Source: a virus
IMG/VR virus record: IMGVR_UViG_3300032288_005197
Location: 21,561-85,560 of that record
DNA: 64,000 bases
Reading direction: 5' to 3' (one strand)
The translations under genes and the position numbers were made by a program. Below, one piece after another: positions 5,313-63,416 of this stretch. Position 1 is the first letter of the stretch; every line of letters begins with the position of its first letter. Under the pieces are notes generated by a model. The model did not search any database and had not been told where the DNA came from. It was given only the letters and a program-made list of their open reading frames with translations.

Positions 5313-5494
5313 TATTTGTTATGTGTTTTTTGTGACTTCTGCCATTTAGAAAATGGAGTTACCCAAAAATCACGATTCACGTTCTTTTTCAAGTAATCGT
5401 AAACGTCATTTCCGGTAGGGTGCTGTAGTACCGCATTACGTAGAGGTTCTTTGCCCTTGCGGTAATTGTCCAAATTTTTAAACGTGTTTTCCAT
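5312..5494 (-). CDS. Hypothetical protein
   Basis: 60 aa ORF directly downstream of the late-promoter motif at 5500-5507. Confidence 0.6.
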   Translation of the reverse strand: MENTFKNLDNYRKGKEPLRNAVLQHPTGNDVYDYLKKNVNRDFWVTPFSKWQKSQKTHNK

Positions 5495-5597
5495 CTAGGT
5501 TATTTATTAAACGTCACCATCATTCTTTCGAGAGAGCTGGTTAAAACTTTATCGCCCGGGTAGATATAATTAATAAACATAAAAACTGTAATTACTG

Positions 5598-20844: not shown

Positions 20845-21351
20845 ATGAAACCTAAAGAGCAGAAGAGCATCAAGACCTTCTTAAAACCACGAGCCGGATC
20901 AATCAGACAGGGCTATTTTAAACCAGCATTTCCTGAAAAATACGTCGGCGATCCAACCCAAATCATATTTAGATCAAGTTGGGAATTCAAGTTTCTTAAG
21001 TGGTGTGATCACAGCCCAACCGTAATCAAGTATTCAAGCGAACCCGTTGGAATTCCCTATTACAGCCCGTTGGACAAAAGGGGCCACACCTATTACATTG
21101 ATTTTTACGTTGTGACAAAGGATAATGAAGGTCGAGAACAGGCATGGCTCATTGAGATTAAGCCTGACAAGTACACTAAGCCCCCAACCGCACCTGAGCG
21201 AATGACTAATAAACAGACCGCAAACTATGTTTATGCTGCAAAGCAGTACATTGTTAACCAGGCCAAATTTGAAGCAGCAAAAGAATTTGCATCAGTTAGG
21301 GGATTAAAATTCGGAATAATTACCGAAAACTTTCTGTTCAAATCAATATAA
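20845..21351 (+). CDS. Head completion nuclease (T4 gp4 / TnsA-like)
   Basis: PEKYVGDP..I.FRSSWE..F..WCD, SSE...IPY, YYIDF, EIKP. Confidence 0.85.
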   Translation: MKPKEQKSIKTFLKPRAGSIRQGYFKPAFPEKYVGDPTQIIFRSSWEFKFLKWCDHSPTVIKYSSEPVGIPYYSPLDKRGHTYYIDFYVVTKDNEGREQAWLIEIKPDKYTKPPTAPERMTNKQTANYVYAAKQYIVNQAKFEAAKEFASVRGLKFGIITENFLFKSI

Positions 21352-21360
21352 AAGATAGTA

Positions 21361-21993
21361 ATGGCAATACAGCAAATAAAGGACTACATCGAAACCGGCA
21401 GGGTCGAGAACTTCGCTCAACCAGGTCCAAATTATCGGTTCTCTGAGGAATCGATACAAGTACCTTTCCTGATTCCAGGTCATGTCTATACGTTTGTTGC
21501 AAAGACCATCAAAGGAAATGATGGATTGCCTAGCCTAGATGACTACACAACAGGCCAGAGCAAAGGAACTAAACCTTATGTTGACAATTATCCAATCTTC
21601 ATTTCATTAGGAAGTAGCGGGCCGATTGAATTTGGTCTGAACATCAAAGTAATGCCTCAGCAACTAAGACGAAGATTCATTCAGACCTACTTAAATCGGA
21701 TTCTACCTGTGCTGTCTAACCTAACTGATGACAAGGGAGAATTTATAGAATACCAAAAAAGAATCAGGCAACCAGAAATGAATCCGTTCGGCTCGGTGAA
21801 TAAGAACTTTGTAATGAGCATCAGCCCGTATTCAGGTATTAAATTTGAGTTCCTGGTTGATAAATATAACAGAGACGAAATGAGATACTTGAGCTTGATA
21901 GATTGGCCGAATGTGCCAAAGGTCGGGGAGATTAACTACTCTCGTGATGAATCTATTGCGACAAGATCACAAATTTCAGACTTTTTGAAATAA
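21361..21993 (+). CDS. DNA end-protector-like protein (T4 gp2-like)
   Basis: PG.VYTF, YVDNYPIF, GLNIKVMP...R pattern; next to the gp4-like gene. Confidence 0.55.
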   Translation: MAIQQIKDYIETGRVENFAQPGPNYRFSEESIQVPFLIPGHVYTFVAKTIKGNDGLPSLDDYTTGQSKGTKPYVDNYPIFISLGSSGPIEFGLNIKVMPQQLRRRFIQTYLNRILPVLSNLTDDKGEFIEYQKRIRQPEMNPFGSVNKNFVMSISPYSGIKFEFLVDKYNRDEMRYLSLIDWPNVPKVGEINYSRDESIATRSQISDFLK

Positions 21994-26481: not shown

Positions 26482-27927
26482 TTAGTATTCTGGGCTCCAG
26501 TTACGATCTCCGCAATTAGAACATCTCATTCTAGGATTCTCTGCAATCTCTTCGTGTTCTGCACGTTCTCCGCACGTATCACAAGAGTACGCAGTAGATT
26601 CATTAACGTTTAAATTTTCAACGGTGACTTTAAAAATCACCTTATCCATATTTAATTCCCATGTACCGGTATTTTGCATGCGGGATGCTCCAATATTAAC
26701 CGGCTTGCTATAAGTCTCGGTTTTACCACCGTTCATGAAAGTAACCTTTGTTCCGTTTGAGGAAAACGTTCCGTTTTTTGCAGCAGGGCCTAGTTTGTGA
26801 CTAATCCAACTAGCTAAAGCATGGTCCATCACCGAGTATTGATTACCTGGACCAGTTGCAGGCTTTCCCTCAGTAACACGTAGGTTTGCAGCAGCTTCCA
26901 TCATGCACTCTGTCATGTAAGAACCGCATTCATTCAAATACGATTCGTAAGTGTGCATTGGATCCTTGTCCTCATCGCACATTTGAGCCTCTTTAATCAA
27001 AATTTCTTCGCAAATCGTCTTAACAGCTCTCTTTGCCTCTTCTGACATTGCTAGATTGTAGCCTTCTTCCATTGGATTCCAACACTCATTCACGAAACTC
27101 TGAAAAGACTCAACGACCTTTGTTGATTTGCTTTTTCTTAGCAATTCAAAATCATTTTTGTCCAACTTACCGTTTTTATTCTTATCAAGTTTCTTTTGAC
27201 CCTTAGTTAATTTTTCAGAAACAGGTTCAATCATTGGACCTGGTACAGGCTTACGAAGTTCTTCGTGTCTAACTTTATCTACGAATCTAACTAATCGGCG
27301 TTGAATGTTATCTGGAAACTGCCCAGTCTTGTCAACTCGACCGTCTGAATATATTACAATTCTTGCAAAAATTCCACGAGCTTCGTGAAACTCTATTGAA
27401 ATCGACTGTTGATAATCATCAGAACTACCCATTCCGGTCTTTTTGACCTCAGCTGTAACATCATCTCCGAACATGCTTGCGATTGATTGAGCTTCTCTCT
27501 TGATTTCTGGGCTAATATGAGTTTCAAAAGAACGTGCTTGTTGCAATACTTTATTACGTCTGAATCCCTCTTTTTCTGGATCAAGCTCCTTTTCTTTATC
27601 CCAAGCTTTTATGAAAGCACTACGTTTAACCGCATTAGAAATCTCGTCAACTTGGCTAGATTCTTCCATGCCAGAAACGATTTCAACCTCAACTGGAATT
27701 GAGTACTCGTGATCGCCGTGTTGAGCGATCAACATTCCGTCACCGTCATAGTCAAATCTCAACTCAACTTCTTGACCGTCGTGTGTTTTTATTAGGATCA
27801 TGGCATGATCATCACCATGTCCACTTAATGATAATATTTCTGGATGAATTGATCTTCCCTCGTGTGATTCTGGAATGGGCTCTCCCATCATGAATTTAGG
27901 TATTCTCTTGTTACCGAACTTTCCCAT
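26482..27927 (-). CDS. Multi-module late/virion protein
   Basis: Late motif at 27948-27955; LDKNKNGKLDKNDF (EF-hand-like), ESFQSFVNE, C-terminal zinc ribbon. Confidence 0.7.
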   Translation of the reverse strand: MGKFGNKRIPKFMMGEPIPESHEGRSIHPEILSLSGHGDDHAMILIKTHDGQEVELRFDYDGDGMLIAQHGDHEYSIPVEVEIVSGMEESSQVDEISNAVKRSAFIKAWDKEKELDPEKEGFRRNKVLQQARSFETHISPEIKREAQSIASMFGDDVTAEVKKTGMGSSDDYQQSISIEFHEARGIFARIVIYSDGRVDKTGQFPDNIQRRLVRFVDKVRHEELRKPVPGPMIEPVSEKLTKGQKKLDKNKNGKLDKNDFELLRKSKSTKVVESFQSFVNECWNPMEEGYNLAMSEEAKRAVKTICEEILIKEAQMCDEDKDPMHTYESYLNECGSYMTECMMEAAANLRVTEGKPATGPGNQYSVMDHALASWISHKLGPAAKNGTFSSNGTKVTFMNGGKTETYSKPVNIGASRMQNTGTWELNMDKVIFKVTVENLNVNESTAYSCDTCGERAEHEEIAENPRMRCSNCGDRNWSPEY

Positions 27928-30579: not shown

Positions 30580-32558
30580 TACTTAATCGATAATTTTTCG
30601 TCCTTTGATTTACATGTGATTACTAAATGATCACCGTCCTTGATGTTACCGTCAATGTAGGCTTCAGCGATTAGGTCCTCAACGTAAGTTTGAATTGCTC
30701 TTTTTAGAGGTCGAGCTCCGAATTTTTCGTCATAACCTTTTTCAATCAAGAATTCTTTTGCCTGTTTAGTTAATTCAACAGAGTATCCGTTTTCTTTGAC
30801 TCTTGAGTAGAGATCAACTAATTCAGTCTCAACGATTTTAGCGATATCTTCCCTCTTTAGAGATTCGAATATGATAATGTCGTCCAAACGATTTATGAAT
30901 TCCGGTGCGAACTGTTTGCTAACAGCTTTTCTTAAAACACCGGCCGCGATTTCTTTCTGCTTCTCATAGTTATTACCAGTCGCAAAGCCTATTCCATTTC
31001 CAAACTCCTGTAACTCTTTAACTCCAAGATTTGAGGTCATAATGATCACTGTATTCTTGAAATCGATCTTGCGACCAAGTCCATCAGTCATGTGACCTTC
31101 ATCCAATACTTGTAGTAGAGTGTGGAAAATATCAGGGTGAGCTTTTTCAACTTCATCCAATAGAACGACTGAGTAAGGCTTACGTTTTACGCGCTCAGTC
31201 AATTGACCTCCCTCTTCGTATCCAACGTAACCCGGAGGAGCTCCCAATAATTTAGTAGCATTGAACTTTTCTCCGTATTCTGACATATCAATTCGGATCA
31301 TTGCATCCTCTGAATCGAACATGAATTTGGAAAGTTGTTTTGCCAATTCTGTTTTGCCTACTCCAGTTGGGCCCAAGAACATGAACGTTCCCACAGGTCT
31401 CTTTTTGGATTTTAGACCAGCTCTAGAGCGCTGAATTGCTTTAGTTAATTTAAGCACAGCTTCTGACTGACCAATTATTCTTGATTCCAACCATTTTGCC
31501 ATGCTCGCAAGCCTTTCCAATTCCGATCCAGTTAATCTAGTGATCGGGATACCTGTCATTGTTGAGATCACTTGTGCAATATCGTCTTCCGTTACAGTCA
31601 ATCGATTGACCTTCAAAGACTCTTCCCACTTGATTTTTTCTTCATCGATTTCCTTCTGCACGGAGAGAGCGTCATCTCTTAGTCGAGCAGCGGCTTCGTA
31701 TTGTTGAGAATCCACTGCTTTTTGTTTTCTTGCAGTCGCTTCAACCAGCTTTTCTTCAAGTTTCTTAATTAAATCGGGTACTACGACGCCGTTGATGTGA
31801 ACGCTTGAACCAGCTTCATCCATTAAGTCAATCGCTTTGTCCGGCAAGAACCTATCCTGTAAATATCGATCGCTATAGCTAACGCATGCATCAAGTGCAG
31901 CGTCCGTGTACTTAACTGAGTGATGATCTTCGTATTTAGATCGAATATTCTCGATGATCTGGCGTGATTGTTCCGGAGTTGATGGTTCTACCATCACTTG
32001 CTGAAAACGGCGATTCAGAGCACCATCCTTTTCAATTGAACCTCTGAACTCATCAAGAGTAGTTGCTCCCAAACACTGAATCTCTCCACGAGAAAGAGCC
32101 GGTTTTAGAATATTTGCTGCGTCCAACGAACCGCTCGCAGAACCTGCTCCAATCAAGGTGTGAATTTCATCGATGAATAGAATGATGTTTGGATTCTGTT
32201 GAACCTCATCAATGATCTGTTCCATTCTCTCTTCGAATTGGCCTCTATACTTTGTGCCAGCTACAAGATTCGCAAGCTCAAGCGAAACTATCTTTTTATC
32301 AAAAAGAACTCGAGGACAGGTTCTGTCCACTATCATTTTTGCTAAACCTTCAACTATCGCTGTCTTACCTACACCAGGTTCGCCAATCAATATTGGATTG
32401 TTCTTTTTTCTGCGAGCTAGAATTTGACTGCATCGCTTAATTTCCTTTTCTCTACCAACTACTGGATCTAGCTTACCTTCAATTGCTAATTGAGTTAGGT
32501 CTTTGCCGTATGAATCCAACATTGGAGTCTTTCCTGGTTTATTCACTTGTTTTGCCAT
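30579..32558 (-). CDS. clpC: ClpC/ClpA-type AAA+ unfoldase lacking the N-domain
   Basis: Two AAA modules ([16 protein letters not shown]), UVR coiled coil, ClpP-binding GIGF loop. Confidence 0.9.
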
Positions 32559-40266: not shown

Positions 40267-40980
40267 CTAAGAAGTTTTGTCAGTATGACTTACATCATCT
40301 AATTTTTGAATCAACATTTCGACTAATCGAGAAACGGCTTCCGGCTTTTCGTCCTTCTTGAATTTAACTTTCACAGTTGCCATACCTGCTTTACTTTCTG
40401 AATTTGGTGCATTACTGTCAACTGCAATATTAGTTACAGTATGAGTGTAATCCGACGCAGTTGAGACTCCAAGTAGTTTACAAGTTGCATCATCCGCTTC
40501 TCCAGTTTGAGGTATCTTGTGTTTTGCTTGGTAAATCTTTAGGGCTTCTCTACATTTAGGCCCAATCACTCCATCCACTCCGTTCTTGTTGGCTCCAGTT
40601 TTTCCAAGTAAAGTCTTATAAGGCTCTCCCAGTTTAACTAGGGCTTCTTGAACTCCACGGATAGTTTGAACCTCAATCTTCTTAAATATGGGTAAAACAT
40701 TTTCTTTAAGACTCGATGGAGTCCTATCGTCTGAAGCTAACAACCTAATATCGAAATTAATATCGAGTTCTTCTAGTCCCATTGAAGAATGGTCAGCTAG
40801 AATGTAGAGAGGAATGTCTATCTCCTTATCGCCGATTAGAAATTTTTTAGTAAGTGGTGTACCGTCCGGCGTAAAGTACTTTGAAATAGTATTTATGTGT
40901 TGTCTTTCCTGAATACCGAGAACGATTAATGCTGCTTCTTGTAGACCTCCCAGTAATTCTTCTAGATTAATTTTAGCCAT
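40267..40980 (-). CDS. DUF2589-like protein with an inserted peptidoglycan-binding domain
   Basis: IPLYILADH..M.LEELDI.F and PEAVSRLVE flank VQEALVKLG...VDGVIGPKCREALKIYQAKHKIPQTGEAD. Confidence 0.65.
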   Translation of the reverse strand: MAKINLEELLGGLQEAALIVLGIQERQHINTISKYFTPDGTPLTKKFLIGDKEIDIPLYILADHSSMGLEELDINFDIRLLASDDRTPSSLKENVLPIFKKIEVQTIRGVQEALVKLGEPYKTLLGKTGANKNGVDGVIGPKCREALKIYQAKHKIPQTGEADDATCKLLGVSTASDYTHTVTNIAVDSNAPNSESKAGMATVKVKFKKDEKPEAVSRLVEMLIQKLDDVSHTDKTS

Positions 40981-41032
40981 AGGTATGCGATTTTATTAAA
41001 AATTATACTAATTAAGTGCAATTGGTTTAAAC

Positions 41033-41061
41033 AAAAAGAGACCAGCTAAACTGGTCTCTTT
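41033..41061. terminator. Intrinsic terminator
   Basis: AAAGAGACCAG-ctaaa-CTGGTCTCTTT. Confidence 0.8.
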
Positions 41062-41084
41062 ATGATTTAATATCAAACTATCGA

Positions 41085-41681
41085 TTACTTAGTTGGATCA
41101 ACAGTAAGAGGAATTAAAGAAGGCTCTAACATTTGAGTCAAATAGTCAGAAAGCTTCAACATACCTTCAGTTGCAGGTAACTGCTCAGCGTGAACTTTTA
41201 CGTTATACTTTGCTGAGTTATCCGTGCTACGAGTGTTCTCTTTGTGAGTTGCAACTTTACCAGCCATGCTCACCGAGTATTTCATACCCCAGAATCCGCC
41301 AGACGCAGAAGCTGAAAAAGATCCCTCTTTGTCTTCGCTTGATTTATCTACTTCTGAAGTTTTTACTTCCATCGTGAATTCGATATCAGCTGAAGTGATA
41401 GCCAATGAAGGAAGTGGAACCAAAGGTAACATAGGAACCTTTGAGTATAGAGTTTGAACTGATTGTTCACCAGTCGTACCGTCAGTAACAACGCGGTTCA
41501 TTTGGACGTCCAAAGAACGAGCTTCAGTTTTACCTTCGTCATTTTTTACGAATGCAACCTCAGAGATATATTTCCAAGTTACATCGTTTAGTTTTGCCTG
41601 ACCTTTGGCCATGCCTACAATTGGAGATACTATTAGATCTTCAATCGGTAATCCAGCAAATTGTTGTGCTATGTCTGCCAT
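41085..41681 (-). CDS. DUF2589-like protein
   Basis: F.GLPIEDLI.SP....AKGQ..L, VPMLPLVPLPSLAI....I.F.MEV, STDNSAKY.V.V.A.Q.P..EG. Confidence 0.75.
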   Translation of the reverse strand: MADIAQQFAGLPIEDLIVSPIVGMAKGQAKLNDVTWKYISEVAFVKNDEGKTEARSLDVQMNRVVTDGTTGEQSVQTLYSKVPMLPLVPLPSLAITSADIEFTMEVKTSEVDKSSEDKEGSFSASASGGFWGMKYSVSMAGKVATHKENTRSTDNSAKYNVKVHAEQLPATEGMLKLSDYLTQMLEPSLIPLTVDPTK

Positions 41682-41761
41682 TATTCTTGATTTTTTTATT
41701 ATTTATCTAGGCAGTCTACTCCGAGTCGATGAAAATTACAGCTTGTTAATATTCAGTTAAT

Positions 41762-41838
41762 TGGTACACCCGGAGAGATTCGAACTCCCAACCCCTTCGT
41801 CCGTAGCGAAGTGCTCTAATCCGTTGAGCTACGGGTGC
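41762..41838 (-). tRNA. tRNA-Arg(ACG)
   Basis: Cloverleaf; anticodon arm CTTCG-CT-ACG-GA-CGAAG; encoded CCA. Confidence 0.95.
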
Positions 41839-41843
41839 AAAAT

Positions 41844-41920
41844 TGGTGATCCCGACAGGGCTCGAACCTGTAACCCCCAGCTTAGAAGGCTGGTGCTCTA
41901 TCCAGTTGAGCTACGGGACC
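41844..41920 (-). tRNA. tRNA-Arg(TCT)
   Basis: Anticodon arm CCAGC-CT-TCT-AA-GCTGG; encoded CCA. Confidence 0.95.
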
Positions 41921-41943
41921 ATTTTTTGTTATTATACTAAATC

Positions 41944-42032
41944 TGGCGGAGAGCGGAGGGATCGAACCTCATACGTTTTACCGTACGTCGCGCTTAGCAG
42001 GCGGACCCACTCGCCGTTGTGGATCACTCTCC
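41944..42032 (-). tRNA. tRNA-Ser(GCT)
   Basis: GGAGAG acceptor, CT-GCT-AA loop, long variable arm, GCCA end; C:C mismatch in the anticodon stem. Confidence 0.85.
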
Positions 42033-42033
42033 A

Positions 42034-42121
42034 TGGTACCTCAGGCCGGACTCGAACCGGCACGGACCTTACGGTCCACTAGATTTTAAGTCTAGCGTGG
42101 CTACCTTTACACCACTGAGGC
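42034..42121 (-). tRNA. tRNA-Leu(TAA)
   Basis: CTAGA-CT-TAA-AA-TCTAG, long variable arm, ACCA end. Confidence 0.95.
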
Positions 42122-42126
42122 ATTCG

Positions 42127-42207
42127 TACCCAGAGTCGGACTCGAACCGACACGTCTTTCGACACTAGTTCCTAAGACTAGCGCGGCTACCATTACGCCA
42201 TCTGGGC
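42127..42207 (-). tRNA. tRNA-Leu(TAG), no encoded CCA
   Basis: CTAGT-CT-TAG-GA-ACTAG; ends ...GGGTA-CGA. Confidence 0.92.
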
Positions 42208-42210
42208 AGA

Positions 42211-42288
42211 TGGGGTGACCGATGGGAATCGAACCCACGACCTCTTGAACCACAATCAAGCGCTCTAACCAACTGAGCTACGGCCAAC
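42211..42288 (-). tRNA. tRNA-His(GTG)
   Basis: CTTGA-TT-GTG-GT-TCAAG; G-1 and C73-CCA. Confidence 0.92.
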
Positions 42289-42289
42289 G

Positions 42290-42372
42290 CGGAAGAAGAG
42301 GGAATCGAACCCCCAAGGCTTTTACACCCAGCTGTTTTCAAGACAGTTTCCTCGTCCATTCGGACTCCTTCC
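42290..42372 (-). tRNA. tRNA-Ser(TGA), no encoded CCA
   Basis: CTGT-CT-TGA-AA-ACAG, long variable arm, G73. Confidence 0.92.
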
Positions 42373-42381
42373 AATTTTTCG

Positions 42382-42451
42382 AGGTCAGTGTTGGAATCGA
42401 ACCAACTCCGCAGATTTTGCAGACCTGCCGGCCTCCACGACCGAACTGACC
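42382..42451 (-). tRNA. tRNA-Cys(GCA), no encoded CCA
   Basis: GCAGGT-CT-GCA-AA-ATCTGC region, GTTCGATTCC T-arm, U73; short D-arm. Confidence 0.85.
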
Positions 42452-42488
42452 AAAAACAAAAAAGGCTTAAACGTTAGTCTAAGCCTTT
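42452..42488 (-). terminator. Intrinsic terminator (attenuator) directly upstream of the tRNA array
   Basis: AAAGGCTTAGAC-taac-GTTTAAGCCTTT followed by TTTGTTTTT, ending at the 5' base of tRNA-Cys. Confidence 0.85.
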
Positions 42489-42527
42489 ATCTGTAATAGT
42501 TCCTTACTTTACATCACGGCTTAGACT
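42476..42527 (-). promoter_or_regulatory. Antiterminator helix
   Basis: AGTCTAAGCC in leader codons 20-23 (42518-42527) is perfectly complementary to GGCTTAGACT in the terminator 5' arm (42476-42485). Confidence 0.8.
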
Positions 42528-42585
42528 TGTCAAGACTTAGTCTTAACGAGCGTAAACAAAGTGAATGTAAAGATAGTGTTTTCAT
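42514..42585 (-). CDS. Attenuator leader peptide MKTLSLHSLCLRSLRLSLDKSKP
   Basis: ATG AAA ACA CTA TCT TTA CAT TCA CTT TGT TTA CGC TCG TTA AGA CTA AGT CTT GAC AAG TCT AAG CCG TGA, directly after the promoter-like GTATATTA. Confidence 0.8.
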   Translation of the reverse strand: MKTLSLHSLCLRSLRLSLDKSKP

Positions 42586-42619
42586 GCTAATAATATACTA
42601 TAAAAGTGGTATTCGGTTT

Positions 42620-43402
42620 TTATTTATCTTTTCTTTTTGCTAATTTTCGTTTAACCGCTTCTCTGGTTGATTCCATCTTCTTTGCATACGACGGATTCTT
42701 TCTCTTGTTGAAGTTGATTTGTTGGTTTAGCGAACCTGTGATCTTTTGCATATTACCACCCCTAGTACGGATTAACCAGTCAGCGAGTTTTTGAACTCCA
42801 AGTTCCTTGAATTTACCCTTTGCATCGGGTGCATCACTGTGATGAAACTTAAGTTTCTTCTTTTCTGATACATCATCATCCTCTTCTTCATCATCCCAAC
42901 GATCGTACTGTTCAGCAAGCTTATTACTAATGATTTCCCTAATTTTATCGAAATATCCAGCCATATCTTCGTATCCTATGATCGCATTCATTGCCAGATC
43001 AATCTCTTCTGCAACCTCGTCAGTTTGCATTGAACTAGGATCCCCATTTTGGAAAAACCAACCCCAATCTAGATCGTCTAGCTCGAATGTTTCCCAAAGA
43101 TCTAGGTCCTTTTGGTTGATGGACCCTTCTGCTTTAATCGTTGAATTATCGAAATCTATTGAAATCGTGATCTCATTCCAAAATTTTCTTGTAACATCCT
43201 GGTACTTTTCAGAATCTATTCCATAATCATCAAGGTTCATGTCCCATTCTGCTACAAGTTTGAGCACGCTACCTTCAACTGCGCCATTGAATCTTTTTGC
43301 TAACTGATCAAGATCAATCGAGCTAAATCCCATCGATCTAAGTTCAGCTGAGTCGTCATTGCTTAGATTTTCAATTACGAATTGTTTAAATGTCTTTATC
43401 AT
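42620..43402 (-). CDS. Hypothetical late protein with capsid-targeting motif
   Basis: MIKTFKQFVIEN, AELRSMGF; basic C-terminal module. Confidence 0.7.
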   Translation of the reverse strand: MIKTFKQFVIENLSNDDSAELRSMGFSSIDLDQLAKRFNGAVEGSVLKLVAEWDMNLDDYGIDSEKYQDVTRKFWNEITISIDFDNSTIKAEGSINQKDLDLWETFELDDLDWGWFFQNGDPSSMQTDEVAEEIDLAMNAIIGYEDMAGYFDKIREIISNKLAEQYDRWDDEEEDDDVSEKKKLKFHHSDAPDAKGKFKELGVQKLADWLIRTRGGNMQKITGSLNQQINFNKRKNPSYAKKMESTREAVKRKLAKRKDK

Positions 43403-43988: not shown

Positions 43989-44385
43989 TGTATTTGATAA
44001 TTAATTCTCCCAATACTTCAATCGTACCGACTATCCTCTGAAATTCCATCTGTTTTAATTTAATGGCTTTAGTTGAACCGTCAATCGTCTTTAAGTGTTC
44101 GGCTAATTCTTTTTTTGCATCAGCGACGTCAAATTTCCCAGCCGCTGCTTTTTTATAGTAAGGAAATTTTACCTTAAAGTGTTGATACGTAAGTAGAGCG
44201 TCTCCGCCCTTTTCCTTTGCATTCTGTGCGATCTTTGAAGCACCGACTAGGCGAATCTTTGCAAATTCTTCCAATGATTCGTTTTTCTTTGCTTCATTGA
44301 TGACGAACTCCTGGAAGCTGAATTCTGTCTTTATTTCTGAGTTTCCTCTAAGTTTTTGGTGTAAATCCCAATTGATTATTGACAT
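43975..44385 (-). CDS. Hypothetical late protein
   Basis: FSFQEFVINE motif. Confidence 0.65.
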   Translation of the reverse strand: MSIINWDLHQKLRGNSEIKTEFSFQEFVINEAKKNESLEEFAKIRLVGASKIAQNAKEKGGDALLTYQHFKVKFPYYKKAAAGKFDVADAKKELAEHLKTIDGSTKAIKLKQMEFQRIVGTIEVLGELIIKYNEIH

Positions 44386-45626
44386 TATAATATATTTGCA
44401 TTTTTAGCCGCAGATTTGATCATATTGACCGTGAATTCAACTCTGTCTTCCTCAGGCTTTGCGGACTCCTTTCGGTTCTCAGAGTCTACCATGGACTTTA
44501 ACAGTTTATCAAGATCCACATTTGACTGTTTAGCTCCTCTACTCGCGTCTCTGAATATCTGCAAGCTACGAGCATCGATTTCTTTTTGCTTGGCCTTTTT
44601 TGCTTTTAACTTTTCAGCGGCAGCCTTTGAGCGTTCTTCCTTTTGTTCTGGAGAATCCTCAGCCCTTCCACTGTACTTAAGTAGAGAGTATGTTGAAATG
44701 TATTTTGCGTAATCCTTTAAATTTTCGTCTGTAAGCTTTGCAGCGATGTTATCAATGATTCCCTTTAGTGTAGTTCCACCGACTAGCATATCGTCAACTA
44801 CCATGAAATATGGAGTTCCTGCAGTGATCACACTACTAATCTTATTATAATTAGGATTTCTCATCAACTCTTGATAGGCTTCAGCCGATGATTTGAATGC
44901 ATTAATTATGTAATCATCAACATGGTGCCCAGGATTCAAGAGACGTCTTGATCCTGACCTAAGTCCTGATGACTTCTTAATGAACCCTGTAAAATCAGTG
45001 CTCTGTGAAGTTTTAGAGTTTTCCATTCCCGGCCATTCCTGAATCGGTTGGCCTGTGCGTTTTGACCAAGCCATTGCGGCTGGACCGTTCCAATATCCAG
45101 CAACGTGATTCTTTAGATAAGAATCTAATTGCTCTCTTGTAATAGTATCTGCTTTTGCATAGGCTTCCCAATTAACGATTGCTAATGGGTCTGCGTAAAA
45201 ACGTTTCATCACGTCTATTACTTTTGCATTAGGATAGTAAAGTTCTTTGATTGTGTTAGCTATTCTAAGCGCCAACGGAGAAGATGATCCAGCTGGAATG
45301 ATAACGTCGACTTTTCGACCTACTAGGTTGGCTGGATAGGTTAATTCAATCAACCTAGTTAGCTCTTCATCGGTTACTGCATCAGGTTTCTTAAGAGCAT
45401 CCATTAGTTGGACTTTTGTTGCTCCGTCCGCCCTTTCCATAGCGTATCCACTGTACATTGCTACCTTCGCGTCAGCTACTTTATAATTAGTGGATTCTGC
45501 AGGTTTTGCACTAGCCAATTTGACAATATCGTCAGGCGAATCTGAATCAAAATCTATGCTCGGTCTTCCGTTAACGAGTTTAATACCCTCAGTTAAAAAC
45601 TGGGAAAAATTCATCAAATGCTTCAT
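44385..45626 (-). CDS. Type I phosphoribosyltransferase-fold protein with capsid-targeting motif
   Basis: VVDDMLVGGTTL PRPP-binding loop; IIPAGSSSPL; MKHLMNFSQFLTE start; late motif at 45631-45638. Confidence 0.65.
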   Translation of the reverse strand: MKHLMNFSQFLTEGIKLVNGRPSIDFDSDSPDDIVKLASAKPAESTNYKVADAKVAMYSGYAMERADGATKVQLMDALKKPDAVTDEELTRLIELTYPANLVGRKVDVIIPAGSSSPLALRIANTIKELYYPNAKVIDVMKRFYADPLAIVNWEAYAKADTITREQLDSYLKNHVAGYWNGPAAMAWSKRTGQPIQEWPGMENSKTSQSTDFTGFIKKSSGLRSGSRRLLNPGHHVDDYIINAFKSSAEAYQELMRNPNYNKISSVITAGTPYFMVVDDMLVGGTTLKGIIDNIAAKLTDENLKDYAKYISTYSLLKYSGRAEDSPEQKEERSKAAAEKLKAKKAKQKEIDARSLQIFRDASRGAKQSNVDLDKLLKSMVDSENRKESAKPEEDRVEFTVNMIKSAAKNANIL

Positions 45627-49268: not shown

Positions 49269-49353
49269 TGGTGCGGATGAAGGGACTCGAACCCCCACGT
49301 CGTGAAACACTAGATCCTAAGTCTAGCGCGGCTACCAATTACGCCACATCCGC
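49269..49353 (-). tRNA. tRNA-Leu(TAG), second copy
   Basis: CTAGA-CT-TAG-GA-TCTAG; ACCA end. Confidence 0.95.
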
Positions 49354-49394: not shown

Positions 49395-49874
49395 TTAAAC
49401 GGTGTGCGGTATCTGAATTCTCACACAAGTTTGAGGTTGATGCTCATTCATCAAGAAATTATTGATGTAGCCCATAATATTGGCTGCTCCAATCGGATTC
49501 GCCGAGTGCACATAAACCTGTGGAAATCTAATCTGTAGGCCAATCTTTCTAAGTCTTGAGGTATCCAGCGCTTCTGGGTACAAATCATAGAAATAATTAA
49601 CCAACCATTTAGCACAATCGTATCCAGTTTTCTCCTTGATATTATTATAGTCAAGAGTGTAGTTGGGACTCACATTATTGAAGTACTCTGACATTGCTGA
49701 GTCACCTAGGTCGTGATCCAATGAGATCATGTGAATGTTATCTAATCCAAGTTCTTTCACCTTGTCAACGAACTCCTGATAGCTTCTAACCACTATCCAA
49801 TCTCCGCCGGCTGGATCAAGTTTCGGTGTACGTACATCATCCAAGTAGATGCGAACTAATTTATTCTCCTCCAT
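49395..49874 (-). CDS. Cyclic-phosphate-processing receiver domain protein
   Basis: IYLDDVR.P, W..VRSY.EF, ISLDHDLG, TGYDCAKWL, VHSANPIG. Confidence 0.8.
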   Translation of the reverse strand: MEENKLVRIYLDDVRTPKLDPAGGDWIVVRSYQEFVDKVKELGLDNIHMISLDHDLGDSAMSEYFNNVSPNYTLDYNNIKEKTGYDCAKWLVNYFYDLYPEALDTSRLRKIGLQIRFPQVYVHSANPIGAANIMGYINNFLMNEHQPQTCVRIQIPHTV

Positions 49875-50937
49875 TTAGTAAAAATTTATTTGAAATTGCT
49901 TTAAACGAAATTTTTCGATCGTGACTTCTGATAACAACTCCCTCTCTATCAAAATTTGGATTAAGCGTTGATTTTGCATCAGCGTACTCAAGCAATTGAT
50001 CTATTGTATCAGGCAAAGTGAATTCGGTTTCAACGATTGGAACAATTGGTAAACCCAATCCCAAGATTAATTTAGTAAACTCTTCAAATCCCAAGTATTC
50101 TTGAGTATCAATATTGAATGCATTAAAGAAGTAAACAGCTTGACCTCTTAATTTATACGGGTTCTTTTGAATTCCCTCACCTACCAATTCTCCTTGAATG
50201 CAGATATTGTAGCCAACTGACTCTAATTTAGACTTAAGCTCCATTTCTCTAGCGACTTTCCAAAAAGTATTTTCATCAGTCTCAAGCAGTTCCAAATTAC
50301 GGGAACAGGCTCCAAACTCTCCGTCCTTTAGGTAGAAAGTTGCGGAAGAACCGTCTAGTTTCTCAGTTACGTAAAATGACCGATCTTTCCAACTTTCATA
50401 ATTGTCGGTTAAGTTTTGTACACGCTCCTCATCAGTCTTGTGAATGAATGATGGGAACATACCTTTAACCTTACCTGCTAATTCAGCTGGAATTGGAGGC
50501 TCGTACTTAAGCACGCACATGTACTCTGTAACGTCAGATCCTTCTTCGATAACTATTGCATCATCATACGGGCCAAGCTGAAGCTGGTCTCCCCAAGGTT
50601 GCTTGCTGATTCCAATCTTCATCTCATCTTCCTTTTCCAGAATACTTAACGGTAAACATAGCCCTTGCGAAACCTGCCCTCTAAGCTTAATCGTTTTTAA
50701 TCTGAATCCCTCTAAGTCTCCCATCTTTTTATACGAGGATTTTCTTAGGAATTCAAAATCCTTCTCCATCGGTAGAAACGAATCTATTTCAAAATAGACG
50801 CAGAGGTCGCCCTCTTTGAATTCACCTTTTTTTGCAACGACGTTCCAGCTATTGATCTGAACTACTTCGATTGCATCAGCTCCATCAATCGGTTTGATTG
50901 CACGGACTCTTTGAATGCTTGCTAATTTTCTTTCCAT
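49861..50937 (-). CDS. RNA ligase, DRB0094/Rnl5 family
   Basis: N-terminal OB-like ADAIE...YFEIDS...LRGQVSQGL; KTDEERVQN, TEKLDGSS, QGELVG, REGVV, FKAISNKFL. Confidence 0.9.
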   Translation of the reverse strand: MERKLASIQRVRAIKPIDGADAIEVVQINSWNVVAKKGEFKEGDLCVYFEIDSFLPMEKDFEFLRKSSYKKMGDLEGFRLKTIKLRGQVSQGLCLPLSILEKEDEMKIGISKQPWGDQLQLGPYDDAIVIEEGSDVTEYMCVLKYEPPIPAELAGKVKGMFPSFIHKTDEERVQNLTDNYESWKDRSFYVTEKLDGSSATFYLKDGEFGACSRNLELLETDENTFWKVAREMELKSKLESVGYNICIQGELVGEGIQKNPYKLRGQAVYFFNAFNIDTQEYLGFEEFTKLILGLGLPIVPIVETEFTLPDTIDQLLEYADAKSTLNPNFDREGVVIRSHDRKISFKAISNKFLLNGGE

Positions 50938-61347: not shown

Positions 61348-62904
61348 TTAGAGTCCGAATCTTGATTTAGTAGTATTCCACTTCTGAGAAATGGTGGTTG
61401 CGTCGATTGCCTTATCGTATATGTTAACGATCGCAAGACGTCCTCCCCAAAATCCTCCCGGAGGATCATCCCAACGTCTCATTAAAACTATTCCATCCTG
61501 TCCGCTAACGACACTACCTGTATAGCTTGTGCTCTGAACTAGAGTATTATTGACGTACAATTTAATAGTAGTACCGTCATAGGTACCGACTATGTGATAC
61601 CAGTTATTGGCAGTTAGAGTGTAACCGGTTGGCGTAGCTCTCCATCCGCCGTTAAAGAACGCTGCTGATAAATTAGGATTATTATCCGCAACCGATCCTA
61701 GTGTGTAGTTGATGTTACCTCCGGAGTTTGGCCATTTTTCAGTCACAATGCAAGGTGACAAACCTGTATTTGTTCCATTGTAGTAGTGCCATACCTCAAC
61801 CGTCCATTTGCCTAACGATGATAAACTGGTAGAGGACCTAGCATATTGTCCGCTTGATGGATCAAACGTGAAGTTACCACCATTTTCTGGAGCCCAAACT
61901 GGGTTATTGTAGAGAGTAAAACTCTTGTTATTGACGATGTCCGTCCAAGTACTGCCTGATCCTGAATAGGTTGCTGCGTCTAGCGCAAGGACTGGCGCAG
62001 AATAAGAACTCCAAAATCCGTTAGTGTCCAACCATGTCTTTGCGAGGATTGCTGTTGCAAAAGTTTGAGGAGTTGCAAACTTTGTCGATACGTACTCGGC
62101 CAAGTCGATGAATTCCGAATCAGTTAAGTTTTTGGTTCGGTTAAATCCAACTGAAGCAAGAGTCTGCCCCAAGAAAGTAAATCCGCCGGGTACTGTGTAG
62201 GTTGAAGTAGTCAATAGCGTTGCTTGCCCGCCATACGGCGTCACTGCTGCATATAAATCAATCAATCCACCTGCTGGGACACCATTGGTTCCGGCACTAG
62301 GGTCGGCTGCTGGATTACCGTTCCAATTACCGCCATTTACTCTAACCCAGGCTAAGTTACCGTCTACTGCGACATCGACTATATCGTTTAGAGATCCCCA
62401 GGTTGGCAAGCCTGACACTTGAGTAGAGCCTCCCAAAAGATAAGTCCCATCCGCTCCAAACCCAATGCTCTTTCCATCAGGTCCACCAACATAACTGTTG
62501 TAATCCATATCCGATTTTCCAAATCCAACGTATCCTCCAGTAATGATTGAATCGTCCACTCTAATGCTGAACATTGCTCTTTCACTTGAAATAATCTTTC
62601 TATTTGCAACCGCTGATGCAAAGACAGCCTGGCCGTCAGCGGTTAGATCATCATTGGTCAAGATGATGCCAGTACCTATTTTGAAACTATCCCAAATCAT
62701 CTTTAGCGGCGTGATTTGAGTTTTCGGGTCAACCTCATGGGCGATCACGAACCCGATTTCCTCGTCCGGACCCATCCACCATAATTCTCCAGAAGGAGGA
62801 GCGGCCGGTACGTATTGAGTATTTCCTACTGCAAGATTACCTATTTGGGTGGTTCCGCTTATCGCCGAGCCTGTATTTAATACAAATGGTCTGGTTGTTG
62901 CCAT
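61348..62904 (-). CDS. Virion surface protein with SPRY-like and LamG/concanavalin domains
   Basis: W.RVNGGNWNG.P.ADP (SPRY-like); LALDAA.YSGSG.TW.D and WYHIVGTYDGTTIKLYVN (LamG); late motif at 62925-62932. Confidence 0.75.
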   Translation of the reverse strand: MATTRPFVLNTGSAISGTTQIGNLAVGNTQYVPAAPPSGELWWMGPDEEIGFVIAHEVDPKTQITPLKMIWDSFKIGTGIILTNDDLTADGQAVFASAVANRKIISSERAMFSIRVDDSIITGGYVGFGKSDMDYNSYVGGPDGKSIGFGADGTYLLGGSTQVSGLPTWGSLNDIVDVAVDGNLAWVRVNGGNWNGNPAADPSAGTNGVPAGGLIDLYAAVTPYGGQATLLTTSTYTVPGGFTFLGQTLASVGFNRTKNLTDSEFIDLAEYVSTKFATPQTFATAILAKTWLDTNGFWSSYSAPVLALDAATYSGSGSTWTDIVNNKSFTLYNNPVWAPENGGNFTFDPSSGQYARSSTSLSSLGKWTVEVWHYYNGTNTGLSPCIVTEKWPNSGGNINYTLGSVADNNPNLSAAFFNGGWRATPTGYTLTANNWYHIVGTYDGTTIKLYVNNTLVQSTSYTGSVVSGQDGIVLMRRWDDPPGGFWGGRLAIVNIYDKAIDATTISQKWNTTKSRFGL

Positions 62905-63291: not shown

Positions 63292-63416
63292 TTGGGAGAA
63301 AGTTGTAAAGGTGTAACGCTTTCGCGCCTCTGTGGGGGTCGAACCCACTACCCATTTTGTTGAAGAAAATTGCTCTACCAATTGAGCTAAGAAGTAACCC
63401 TTACATTGCTACCCAA
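63292..63416 (-). ncRNA. Y RNA (YrlA)-like RNA 3, embedded unpermuted tRNA body with TCA anticodon
   Basis: Terminal stem TTGGG/CCCAA; TAGCAAT..GGTTACTTC; TAGCTCAATTGGTAGAGC, ATTTT-CT-TCA-AC-AAAAT, GTGGG-TTCGACC-CCCAC. Confidence 0.7.

Follow-up and report, generated by a model that had tools for sequence, protein, structure and literature searches.

A leader ORF and a terminator ahead of eight tRNA genes

What separates a phage tRNA array from the gene upstream of it? We addressed this question in a 64,000-nucleotide stretch of viral DNA (hereafter the window), positions 21,561 to 85,560 of the 85.6-kb IMG/VR record IMGVR_UViG_3300032288_005197, which CheckV rates as 32% complete. Here a module made up of a short leader open reading frame (ORF) and an intrinsic terminator—a candidate transcription attenuator—precedes eight tRNA genes, all on the minus strand, and the features are described in that direction. 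The upstream gene, 260 codons long and of no known family, ends at 42620. A ATAAATAA motif (42620..42627) overlaps its stop codon, and a -10-like hexamer, TATATT (42592..42597), lies 6 nt before the ATG of the leader ORF in a leaderless-type arrangement. The ORF itself (42585..42514) has 23 codons and reads MKTLSLHSLCLRSLRLSLDKSKP, followed by TGA. Behind it stands the terminator (42452..42488), whose hairpin (42488..42461) has 12 pairs and a loop of 4 and whose T run ends at 42452, abutting the first base of tRNA-Cys at 42451. There is no room for a promoter between terminator and array, and the leader ORF is divided from the tRNA genes by an intrinsic terminator with no promoter in between. 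The array (41762..42451) comprises, according to ARAGORN, Cys-GCA, Ser-TGA, His-GTG, Leu-TAG, Leu-TAA, Ser-GCT, Arg-TCT, and Arg-ACG, and a second copy of the -10-like motif, TAGTATAATA (41930..41939), lies within it between tRNA-Ser-GCT and tRNA-Arg-TCT. An initial annotation, made from the letters of the DNA alone, had described the promoter-like site, the ORF, the terminator, and the order and anticodons of the eight tRNAs, and all of its positions and details were correct.

Which codons does the leader contain? Codons 4 to 18 (42532..42576) form a putative regulatory run in which 15 of 15 encode Leu, Ser, His, Cys, or Arg, exactly as the initial annotation had listed them. Across long ORFs of this phage, 22% of codons specify one of the five. 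Among 127,912 overlapping 15-codon windows in six frames across the whole window, the score of 15 is unique to the leader; 14 is reached by two windows, both overlapping the leader run, and 11 windows follow with 13. Codons for the amino acids that would be sensed are thus enriched in the leader ORF, and they remain so in related phages (14 to 15 of 15). Array anticodons decode 12 of the 15 codons under standard wobble; TCT and CTT (twice) require U34 to read U under textbook wobble rules. ARAGORN also calls a "tRNA-SeC" with anticodon TCA at 63324–63396 (minus strand), near the record end, and under translation table 11 the window's long ORFs are open. Read-through of the leader TGA by this tRNA was considered and rejected, as the extended frame is not conserved: in the window a stop follows 9 codons later, and in one relative (L005) the frame continues, by eye, through the terminator.

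Is the module maintained among related phages? Relatives were found in IMG/VR via neighboring proteins and DNA patterns, and they are phages of about 250 to 270 kb. They supplied five further distinct versions of the module besides that of the window itself (WIN): L003, L005 (identical in five contigs), L112, L102 (in genome G005), and L232 (in genome G001). The upstream protein is 58 to 88% identical among relatives and is replaced by a different gene in L112 and L232; the module occurs in all six lineages bearing the array, whatever the upstream gene, and is absent behind the homologous upstream gene in L004/L010 (genome G003), where no array lies. An ATG-started, TGA-ended ORF of exactly 23 codons is open in every one of the six, the other two frames having 1 to 3 stops each, and it would be transcribed from the adjacent promoter-like sites. 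Loss of the ORF and of its complementarity to the terminator in homologous loci had been named as grounds for abandoning the attenuator interpretation; the homologous loci keep both, the ORF at 23 codons and the complementarity at eight core pairs (6/6 each).

Within this constant frame the codons change in a particular way. WIN and L005 differ by seven synonymous and two nonsynonymous codon changes in frame 0, as against ratios of 3:6 and 1:7 in the other frames. Codons 4 to 18 fall in the five-amino-acid set in 15 of 15 cases in L003, L005, and L112 and in 14 of 15 in L102 and L232, so that the composition of the run is kept in relatives although 8 or more codons differ. L102 and L232 depart from WIN at 14 to 15 of 22 codons, and their peptide differs from residue 8 onward. 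Conservation of composition without conservation of sequence is what would be predicted of a codon sensor and not of a functional peptide. It bears directly on the proposal that the ORF is a micro-protein gene, in which the product, a basic 23-residue peptide rich in Leu and Ser, would serve a function of its own, the gene would have its own terminator, and the tRNAs would arise by leak-through. The constant ORF length and the identity of residues 1 to 7 (MKTLSLH) in all six lineages, with synonymous variation, agree with that proposal. However, residues 8 to 23 are unconserved between clades (11 nonsynonymous codons between WIN and L102), with only composition kept; the ORF takes part in pairings with the terminator that exclude one another; and other arrays, described below, have unrelated ORFs in the same architecture. 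We regard a micro-protein gene as very improbable.

The array varies more than the leader frame that precedes it. In L005 and L112, ARAGORN misses both Ser tRNAs, yet homologues with intact anticodon loops are present (Ser-TGA and Ser-GCT at L005:5036–5118 and about 5410–5500, and at the homologous places on the reverse strand of L112); four lineages thus hold all eight tRNAs. Rfam scores one of these L005/L112 homologues as tRNA-Sec (47.9 bits) and fails to call Cys and Ser-GCT in the array of the window itself. The corresponding array (array 1) has four tRNAs in G005 (Cys, His, Leu-TAA, and Arg-TCT) and these plus Arg-ACG in G001. L003 is near-identical to the window across the array, except for an insert of ~715 nt between tRNA-His and tRNA-Leu-TAG (L003:5187–5903).

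Blastn of the region against 50,697 phage records gave only tRNA-to-tRNA matches, with no record covering at least 80% of the query, and so pointed to no cultured phage as a close relative. A loose-pattern scan of metagenomes found at least 119 stretches with 120 matches, 100 of them heading ORFs of up to 40 codons; among the matches listed, none had a likeness to the leader beyond the pattern itself or a tRNA array directly behind it. Pattern matches in L098, L103/L109, L106, and L107 were set aside as unrelated genes with the same arrangement of -10-like hexamer and ATG. Three small tRNA groups in relatives (L037, L048, and L059) have no leader-plus-terminator ahead of them, so the module is not universal.

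Alternative RNA folds, ribosome position, and start signals

The leader (171 nt) has a predicted fold of -51.4 kcal/mol (z = -5.83), a value matched by none of 200 shuffles, in which one long hairpin spans the ORF and the terminator follows. The RNAalifold consensus of the six sequences contains the same two elements, the leader hairpin in alignment columns 59 to 124 and the terminator; double-sided changes affect 7 of the 41 pairs. Region 1, the 5' half of this hairpin (columns 59 to 91), lies at 42540..42572, and region 2, the 3' half, which includes the antiterminator strand and the stop codon, at 42507..42536. The hairpin begins at codon 5 and extends eight bases beyond the stop, and the 1:2 pairing therefore overlaps the ORF at codons 5 to 23 and the stop codon. 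At columns 60/123, where the wobble base of Ser codon 5 meets a base after the stop, the pair is UA, CG, or AU. The terminator is conserved among the six lineages, and three of its pairs have double-sided changes.

A competing pairing joins the ORF to the terminator. Codons 20 to 23 contain AGTCTAAGCC (42527..42518), a perfect 10-bp complement of GGCTTAGACT (region 3, 42485..42476), which lies in the 5' arm of the terminator; this match, too, had been pointed out in the initial annotation. Region 3 can pair with region 2, forming the antiterminator, or with region 4, forming the terminator, and the 2:3 and 3:4 pairings are mutually exclusive. In WIN, the ORF-to-arm duplex has a predicted energy of -17.6 kcal/mol vs. 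a mean of -7.8 for shuffled ORFs, and none of 500 shuffles attains it. All six lineages keep eight core pairs, and two pairs have compensatory changes in the L102/L232 clade (U-A to C-G and C-G to U-A), while the 3' arm of the terminator remains UU across these changes, wobble-pairing either way. Antiterminator cells of the alignment are paired in 91.7% of cases vs. 5 to 55% when the partner is slid by 1 to 3 columns, and the number of doubly changed cells is reached by 12 of 500 shuffles of the six sequences.

Where would a ribosome have to stand to decide between these folds? We simulated it as a 27-nt mask around the A site, a footprint size that is assumed. Because the TGA begins 2 nt past the antiterminator strand, a terminating ribosome of this footprint would mask region 2. 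With the A site at codon 19 or beyond, stop included, the antiterminator was blocked in all six lineages; at codon 17 or before, it was left free in all six; and at codon 18 it was partly free (P 0.02 to 0.98). The run of Leu, Ser, His, Cys, and Arg codons (4 to 18) exceeds the codon-17 limit by one codon, and how closely the run matches the masking limit varies with the footprint chosen. In six modules of four leader classes, 23 to 27 nt lie between stop codon and terminator stem.

Putative start signals around the leader are also conserved. The ATAAATAA motif, set within a block ..AAATAAAACC.. that is kept in all six lineages even where the upstream gene differs, is a putative promoter, as is the -10-like hexamer, whose position is conserved in all six (TATAAT in L112). 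We take the ATAAATAA motif to resemble a T4 late promoter. As (T)ATAAATAA(C), it stands 5 to 35 nt before many gene starts of the window, e.g., those of 44385..45626, 20845..21351, 26482..27927, and 61348..62904. Four long minus-strand ORFs, starting at 32558, 52776, 54899, and 61309, have a -10-like hexamer (TATAAT, TATATT, or TACATT) 6 to 8 nt before the ATG, which suggests leaderless or nearly leaderless mRNAs; the leader ORF may be transcribed and translated in this manner. A TTGACA-16-TAAAGT match at 42533..42506 was rejected as a promoter: a start from it would fall within the leader hairpin, and 7 such matches occur where 4.9 are expected. RNA-library contigs from four riverine studies contain a version ~92% alike, in which leader, terminator, and tRNA-Cys are bridged in three runs (X2, X3, and X6) and terminator and tRNA-Cys in a fourth (X1); since contigs show neither ends nor strand and DNA carry-over is possible, this is a weak hint of transcription through the region. 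Four RNA runs, at 88% likeness, gave almost no cover over 41000–41736 (one small contig in X2) and none over 42675–43000, from which we draw no conclusion. Runs X5 and X7 to X20 had small word shares and count as no evidence.

Leaders ahead of other tRNA arrays

Do other arrays in these phages have leaders of their own? Genome G001 (253 kb, 94% complete) has 24 tRNAs, and its second array (array 2) has 17, for F, K, I, M, W, Q, D, E, A, T, G, P, N, and Y. It is preceded by the motifs TGGTATAAT and TATAAATAA, by an ORF of 43 codons with a GTG start, and by a terminator whose end is about ten bases from tRNA-Phe. Codons 2 to 34 of this ORF (leader 2) include all 14 amino acids of array 2 and no L, R, H, or C, and 30 of these 33 codons fall in the array-2 set; windows with the same coverage and at least 29 in-set codons number 58 among 506,078 in G001, in 11 places including the leader-2 ORF. 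Classed by array set, the two leaders of G001 give the table [[14,1],[2,30]] (Fisher p = 5e-9). Leader 2 is predicted to fold into a long hairpin and the terminator (z = -5.98), and its ORF contains an 8-nt complement of the terminator arm whose duplex is reached by none of 500 shuffles. It is conserved in G001, G004, and G005. In G004, three consecutive codons differ from those of G001 with the 43-codon length kept, a difference that reads like paired indels, where MAFFT placed no gap. In G005, array 2 is without Lys, Asn, and two CAT-anticodon tRNAs, and leader 2 has lost its single ATA and its single ATG. A search for leader 2 in the window's own record gave nothing above chance (best E = 0.04), which says nothing about its absence from the phage, as the record is a 32%-complete fragment. 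G001 also encodes a tmRNA (L233–L245; 247539–247907) with tag GNTNFWSLVNAGVSTPVTEELLAA.

Two further genomes have leaders of other classes. In G007, the only array comprises 20 tRNAs that serve 18 amino acids, Thr not among them, and the 34-codon ORF ahead of it contains 19 different amino acids, lacking Thr only. Its first 24 codons hold all 18 array amino acids, and codons 26 to 29 contain a 9-nt complement of the terminator arm. With G001 as the null genome, at least 19 different residues occur in 24 stop-free codons in 9 of 154,612 windows. The fourth class, in G009, fits more poorly, with 15 of 18 array amino acids represented and two extra. Over eight leader–array pairs, the array amino acids found in their own leader are 5/5, 4/4, 4/4, 14/14, 11/12, 15/15, 18/18, and 15/18, or 86 of 90 in sum. 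Codon choice within the first leader also differs between clades: codons 4 to 18 contain four CTN Leu codons in WIN and none in G005 and one in G001, the clade without Leu-TAG. The match between leader and array holds for whole modules and is loose for single tRNAs. A TC(C/T)TTTGACATATTGG motif lies 10 to 25 nt before the following tRNA in L256 (G007), L095, L097, and L248; the tRNA in question is tRNA-Cys behind the leader terminator and tRNA-Val within the array of G003.

A putative attenuator of phage tRNA supply

How might these parts work together? Given the observed anatomy, its conservation, the covariation, and the codon statistics, we consider it likely that the module is a ribosome-mediated (leader-peptide) transcription attenuator of the trp/his type that couples transcription of the phage tRNAs to decoding speed. 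The initial annotation had proposed such a tRNA-sensing attenuator, and the proposal is strengthened by the retention of ORF, hairpins, terminator, and pairing in six lineages and by covariation at the level of modules. From the sequence we infer the promoter, the transcription start, translation of the ORF, regulated read-through, a kinetic choice between folds, and the physiological trigger. Transcription would start just upstream of, or at, the leader ATG. With the leader hairpin (1:2) and the terminator (3:4) folded, RNA polymerase would stop at the T run, one base before tRNA-Cys; with the 2:3 antiterminator folded, it would proceed into the eight tRNA genes. A fast ribosome would reach the TGA and either cover region 2 or free it to re-pair with region 1, giving the terminator. 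A ribosome slowed in codons 4 to 17 would open region 1, region 2 would capture region 3, and the tRNAs would be made. The slow codons would call for the same Leu, Ser, His, Cys, and Arg tRNAs as the array supplies, and the outcome would be negative feedback in which tRNA supply is matched to decoding demand during infection. That cleavage by host anticodon nucleases serves as the trigger is speculation.

A number of observations weigh against this attenuator. Some concern the folds. When the antiterminator was shuffled in the six-sequence alignment, 78 of 500 shuffles reached its paired percentage and 48 of 500 its covariation score, so that this control is not decisive, and the compensatory double change is probably a single evolutionary event. 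The ORF-to-arm duplex is no better than shuffles in L102 (p = 0.15) and G009 (p = 0.32). Folding the leader with ribosome-masked segments, a check suggested along with the initial annotation, gave a divided result at equilibrium in the five lineages folded (L003 excluded): WIN shifted to the antiterminator when stalled at codons 7 to 13 and L112, among the stall positions listed, from about codon 6, with an antiterminator P of up to 0.86, but L005, L102, and L232 kept a terminator P of 1.00 despite the masked ribosome. With region 4 removed, the antiterminator formed even in the ribosome-free leader (P 0.56 to 1.0), so the switch would have to be kinetic, beyond what folding programs represent. 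In classical attenuators the choice between folds is likewise kinetic.

Others concern expression and codon choice. The leader is without a Shine-Dalgarno sequence, as are most genes of the window, and no TTGACA-like -35 lies ahead of it, so that TATATT is only a putative promoter. The TAGTATAATA copy within the array may provide an own start for the two Arg tRNAs, bypassing the switch. Synonymous choice in the leader is in keeping with codon usage across the phage, and we accordingly claim no preference for the synonymous codons that the array reads.

Still others come from related phages. In G003 (L262 and L248) both terminators are kept and both leader ORFs are lost. The leader-1 terminator lies elsewhere in this genome, followed by a chimeric tRNA-Cys/Ser-type remnant and accompanied by no ORF. 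At its array 2, the promoter-like site and the terminator are kept, leader-2 ORF and part of tRNA-Phe are lost, and the intact tRNAs follow a bare terminator and the truncated tRNA-Phe. Such terminators without ORFs, together with the missing Shine-Dalgarno sequence, would be expected if the leader were an untranslated structured RNA—one that brakes constitutively, insulates the array from the upstream gene, or takes part in the processing or stability of the tRNA precursor—with the open frame and its composition as by-products. The RNA structure itself is clearly selected, and the seven synonymous differences of L005 from WIN are all transitions, of a kind that a helix tolerates via G-U pairs. 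Structure, however, leaves unexplained a codon run that is unique among the 127,912 windows, as well as an open frame of constant length in six of six lineages with stops in the other frames. In addition, the unpaired stretch varies at two sites, codons 3 and 4, and synonymously at both, leader 2 of G004 keeps 43 codons despite its three-codon change, and unrelated leaders spell the amino acids of their own arrays. An untranslated structured leader seems to us quite unlikely.

A last group of difficulties lies in the fine detail of leader and array content. The arrays of L102 and L232 are without both Ser tRNAs and their leaders retain four to five Ser codons (G001 has a Ser-TGA tRNA outside array 1); L102, without Arg-ACG, has a CGA codon in its leader; leader 2 of G005 keeps two Lys and five Asn codons; and the G009 leader is without N, P, and Y, all of which are in its array. 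With the losses in G003, these mismatches place the correspondence at the level of the module and leave it loose for each tRNA. The suggestion in the initial annotation that leader codons covary with array anticodons therefore stands insofar as different arrays have leaders spelling their own sets and fails for the Ser, Lys, and Asn codons retained without cognate tRNAs. The mismatches agree with another explanation, in which the leader is translated and acts as a general gauge—of ribosome availability, translation speed, or coupling, as affected by host shut-off, infection stage, or antibiotics—rather than of specific tRNAs, its composition reflecting weak or historical selection. Large leaders sampling 14 to 19 amino acids would answer almost any slowdown, and the tRNA array of Anabaena responds to general translational stress (PMC8421152). 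Against it stand a first leader limited to five amino acids and, in the same genome, a second whose codons 2 to 34 avoid L, R, H, and C, a complementary partition that would be needless in a general gauge. The representation of nearly all array amino acids over the eight pairs also argues against it. Such a gauge appears rather unlikely.

How does the putative attenuator relate to known systems? In the DNA, the module has every feature by which leader-peptide attenuators are recognized. Its nearest counterparts are the enterobacterial multivalent leaders and the pheST leader. Of the multivalent ones, the ilvGMEDA leader senses Ile, Val, and Leu and the thr leader senses Thr and Ile. The phage module has in common with them a short ORF rich in codons of several amino acids, the alternative 1:2, 2:3, and 3:4 pairings, a terminator before the regulated genes, and a stop codon beside region 2. 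Unlike them, it would regulate tRNAs and not biosynthetic enzymes; its leader samples five amino acids (14 to 19 in the sister leaders), mostly one to four times each and with no long runs; and its T run abuts the first tRNA, with no Shine-Dalgarno sequence and possibly a leaderless transcript. The switch logic is also that of the trp, his, leu, and pheA leaders (for the pheL leader attenuator, see PMC3082878), from which the phage module differs in sensing several amino acids and in its output. Rfam reports a subthreshold likeness, over whole models and on the right strand, to Phe_leader (17.6 bits, E = 1.6) and to the trpB motif (23.3 bits, E = 0.39); the gathering thresholds of 55 and 59 bits, respectively, are far above these scores, and the leader belongs to no Rfam family.

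The attenuator of the pheST operon, with its pheM leader, controls an aminoacyl-tRNA synthetase and senses one amino acid. It shares with the phage module leader-peptide attenuation of a gene of the translation apparatus that reports on the charged tRNA pool; the gene is a synthetase in the one and tRNA genes in the other. T-box riboswitches bind uncharged tRNA directly, without translation. They share the sensing of tRNA status and the choice between terminator and antiterminator, but in the phage module the sensor would be an ORF, and an Rfam search of 42380–42700 gave no T-box match at E up to 10. A full-text literature search, which returned mostly listings and the starts of abstracts, yielded no description of an attenuator controlling tRNA genes, in line with the initial annotation, in which no described translational attenuator was known to control a tRNA operon in this way. 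The nearest published case from this search is the trn accessory tRNA array of Anabaena sp. PCC 7120, which is silent and is induced when translation is impaired, and with which the RNA ligase gene rtcB is coregulated (PMC8421152, PMC10272220). The linkage of an RNA ligase to a tRNA array is a common point, an RNA ligase gene lying 7 kb from the array in the window. Unlike the phage module, the Anabaena array is a cellular element and is under promoter control via direct repeats and the repressor TrcR (PMC8421152, PMC10272220); in PMC8421152, "attenuat," "leader," and "terminator" are all absent.

The RNA ligase gene of the window (49861–50937, minus strand; Pfam RNA_ligase, 1.3e-27; PHROG 968, 5.9e-89) adjoins a second tRNA-Leu-TAG (49269–49353, minus strand), which is solitary and has no leader. 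Directly after the array lie two DUF2589 paralogues (40267–40980 and 41085–41681, minus strand), one with an inserted peptidoglycan-binding domain and the other 80 to 96% identical across 80 IMG/VR loci.

The usual answers to why phages carry tRNA genes are compensation for codon usage and escape from tRNA-targeting defenses. If our interpretation is true, the phage would measure decoding speed at the very codons that its tRNAs read and make tRNAs in response—a direct feedback between tRNA demand and supply. Attenuation, known from textbooks for genes of amino-acid biosynthesis (the pheST synthetase operon is an exception), would extend to the decoding machinery itself, with a sensor that could cover up to 18 amino acids at once. 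The module would also provide a signature by which regulated phage tRNA operons could be recognized in metagenomes (a promoter, a short ORF spelling the array, a stretch within that ORF complementary to the terminator arm, and a terminator 23 to 27 nt past the stop), and it could serve synthetic circuits as a small natural sensor of tRNA shortage. More tentatively, and with considerable doubt, giant phages may control tRNA supply in a modular, RNA-only fashion, each array having a near-pangram leader of its own that gates it and acts as a codon-by-codon test strip. The subset of tRNAs that fails, e.g., under anticodon nucleases or host shut-off, would then be sensed and replaced on demand, with the nearby RNA ligase and repair genes as a second arm.

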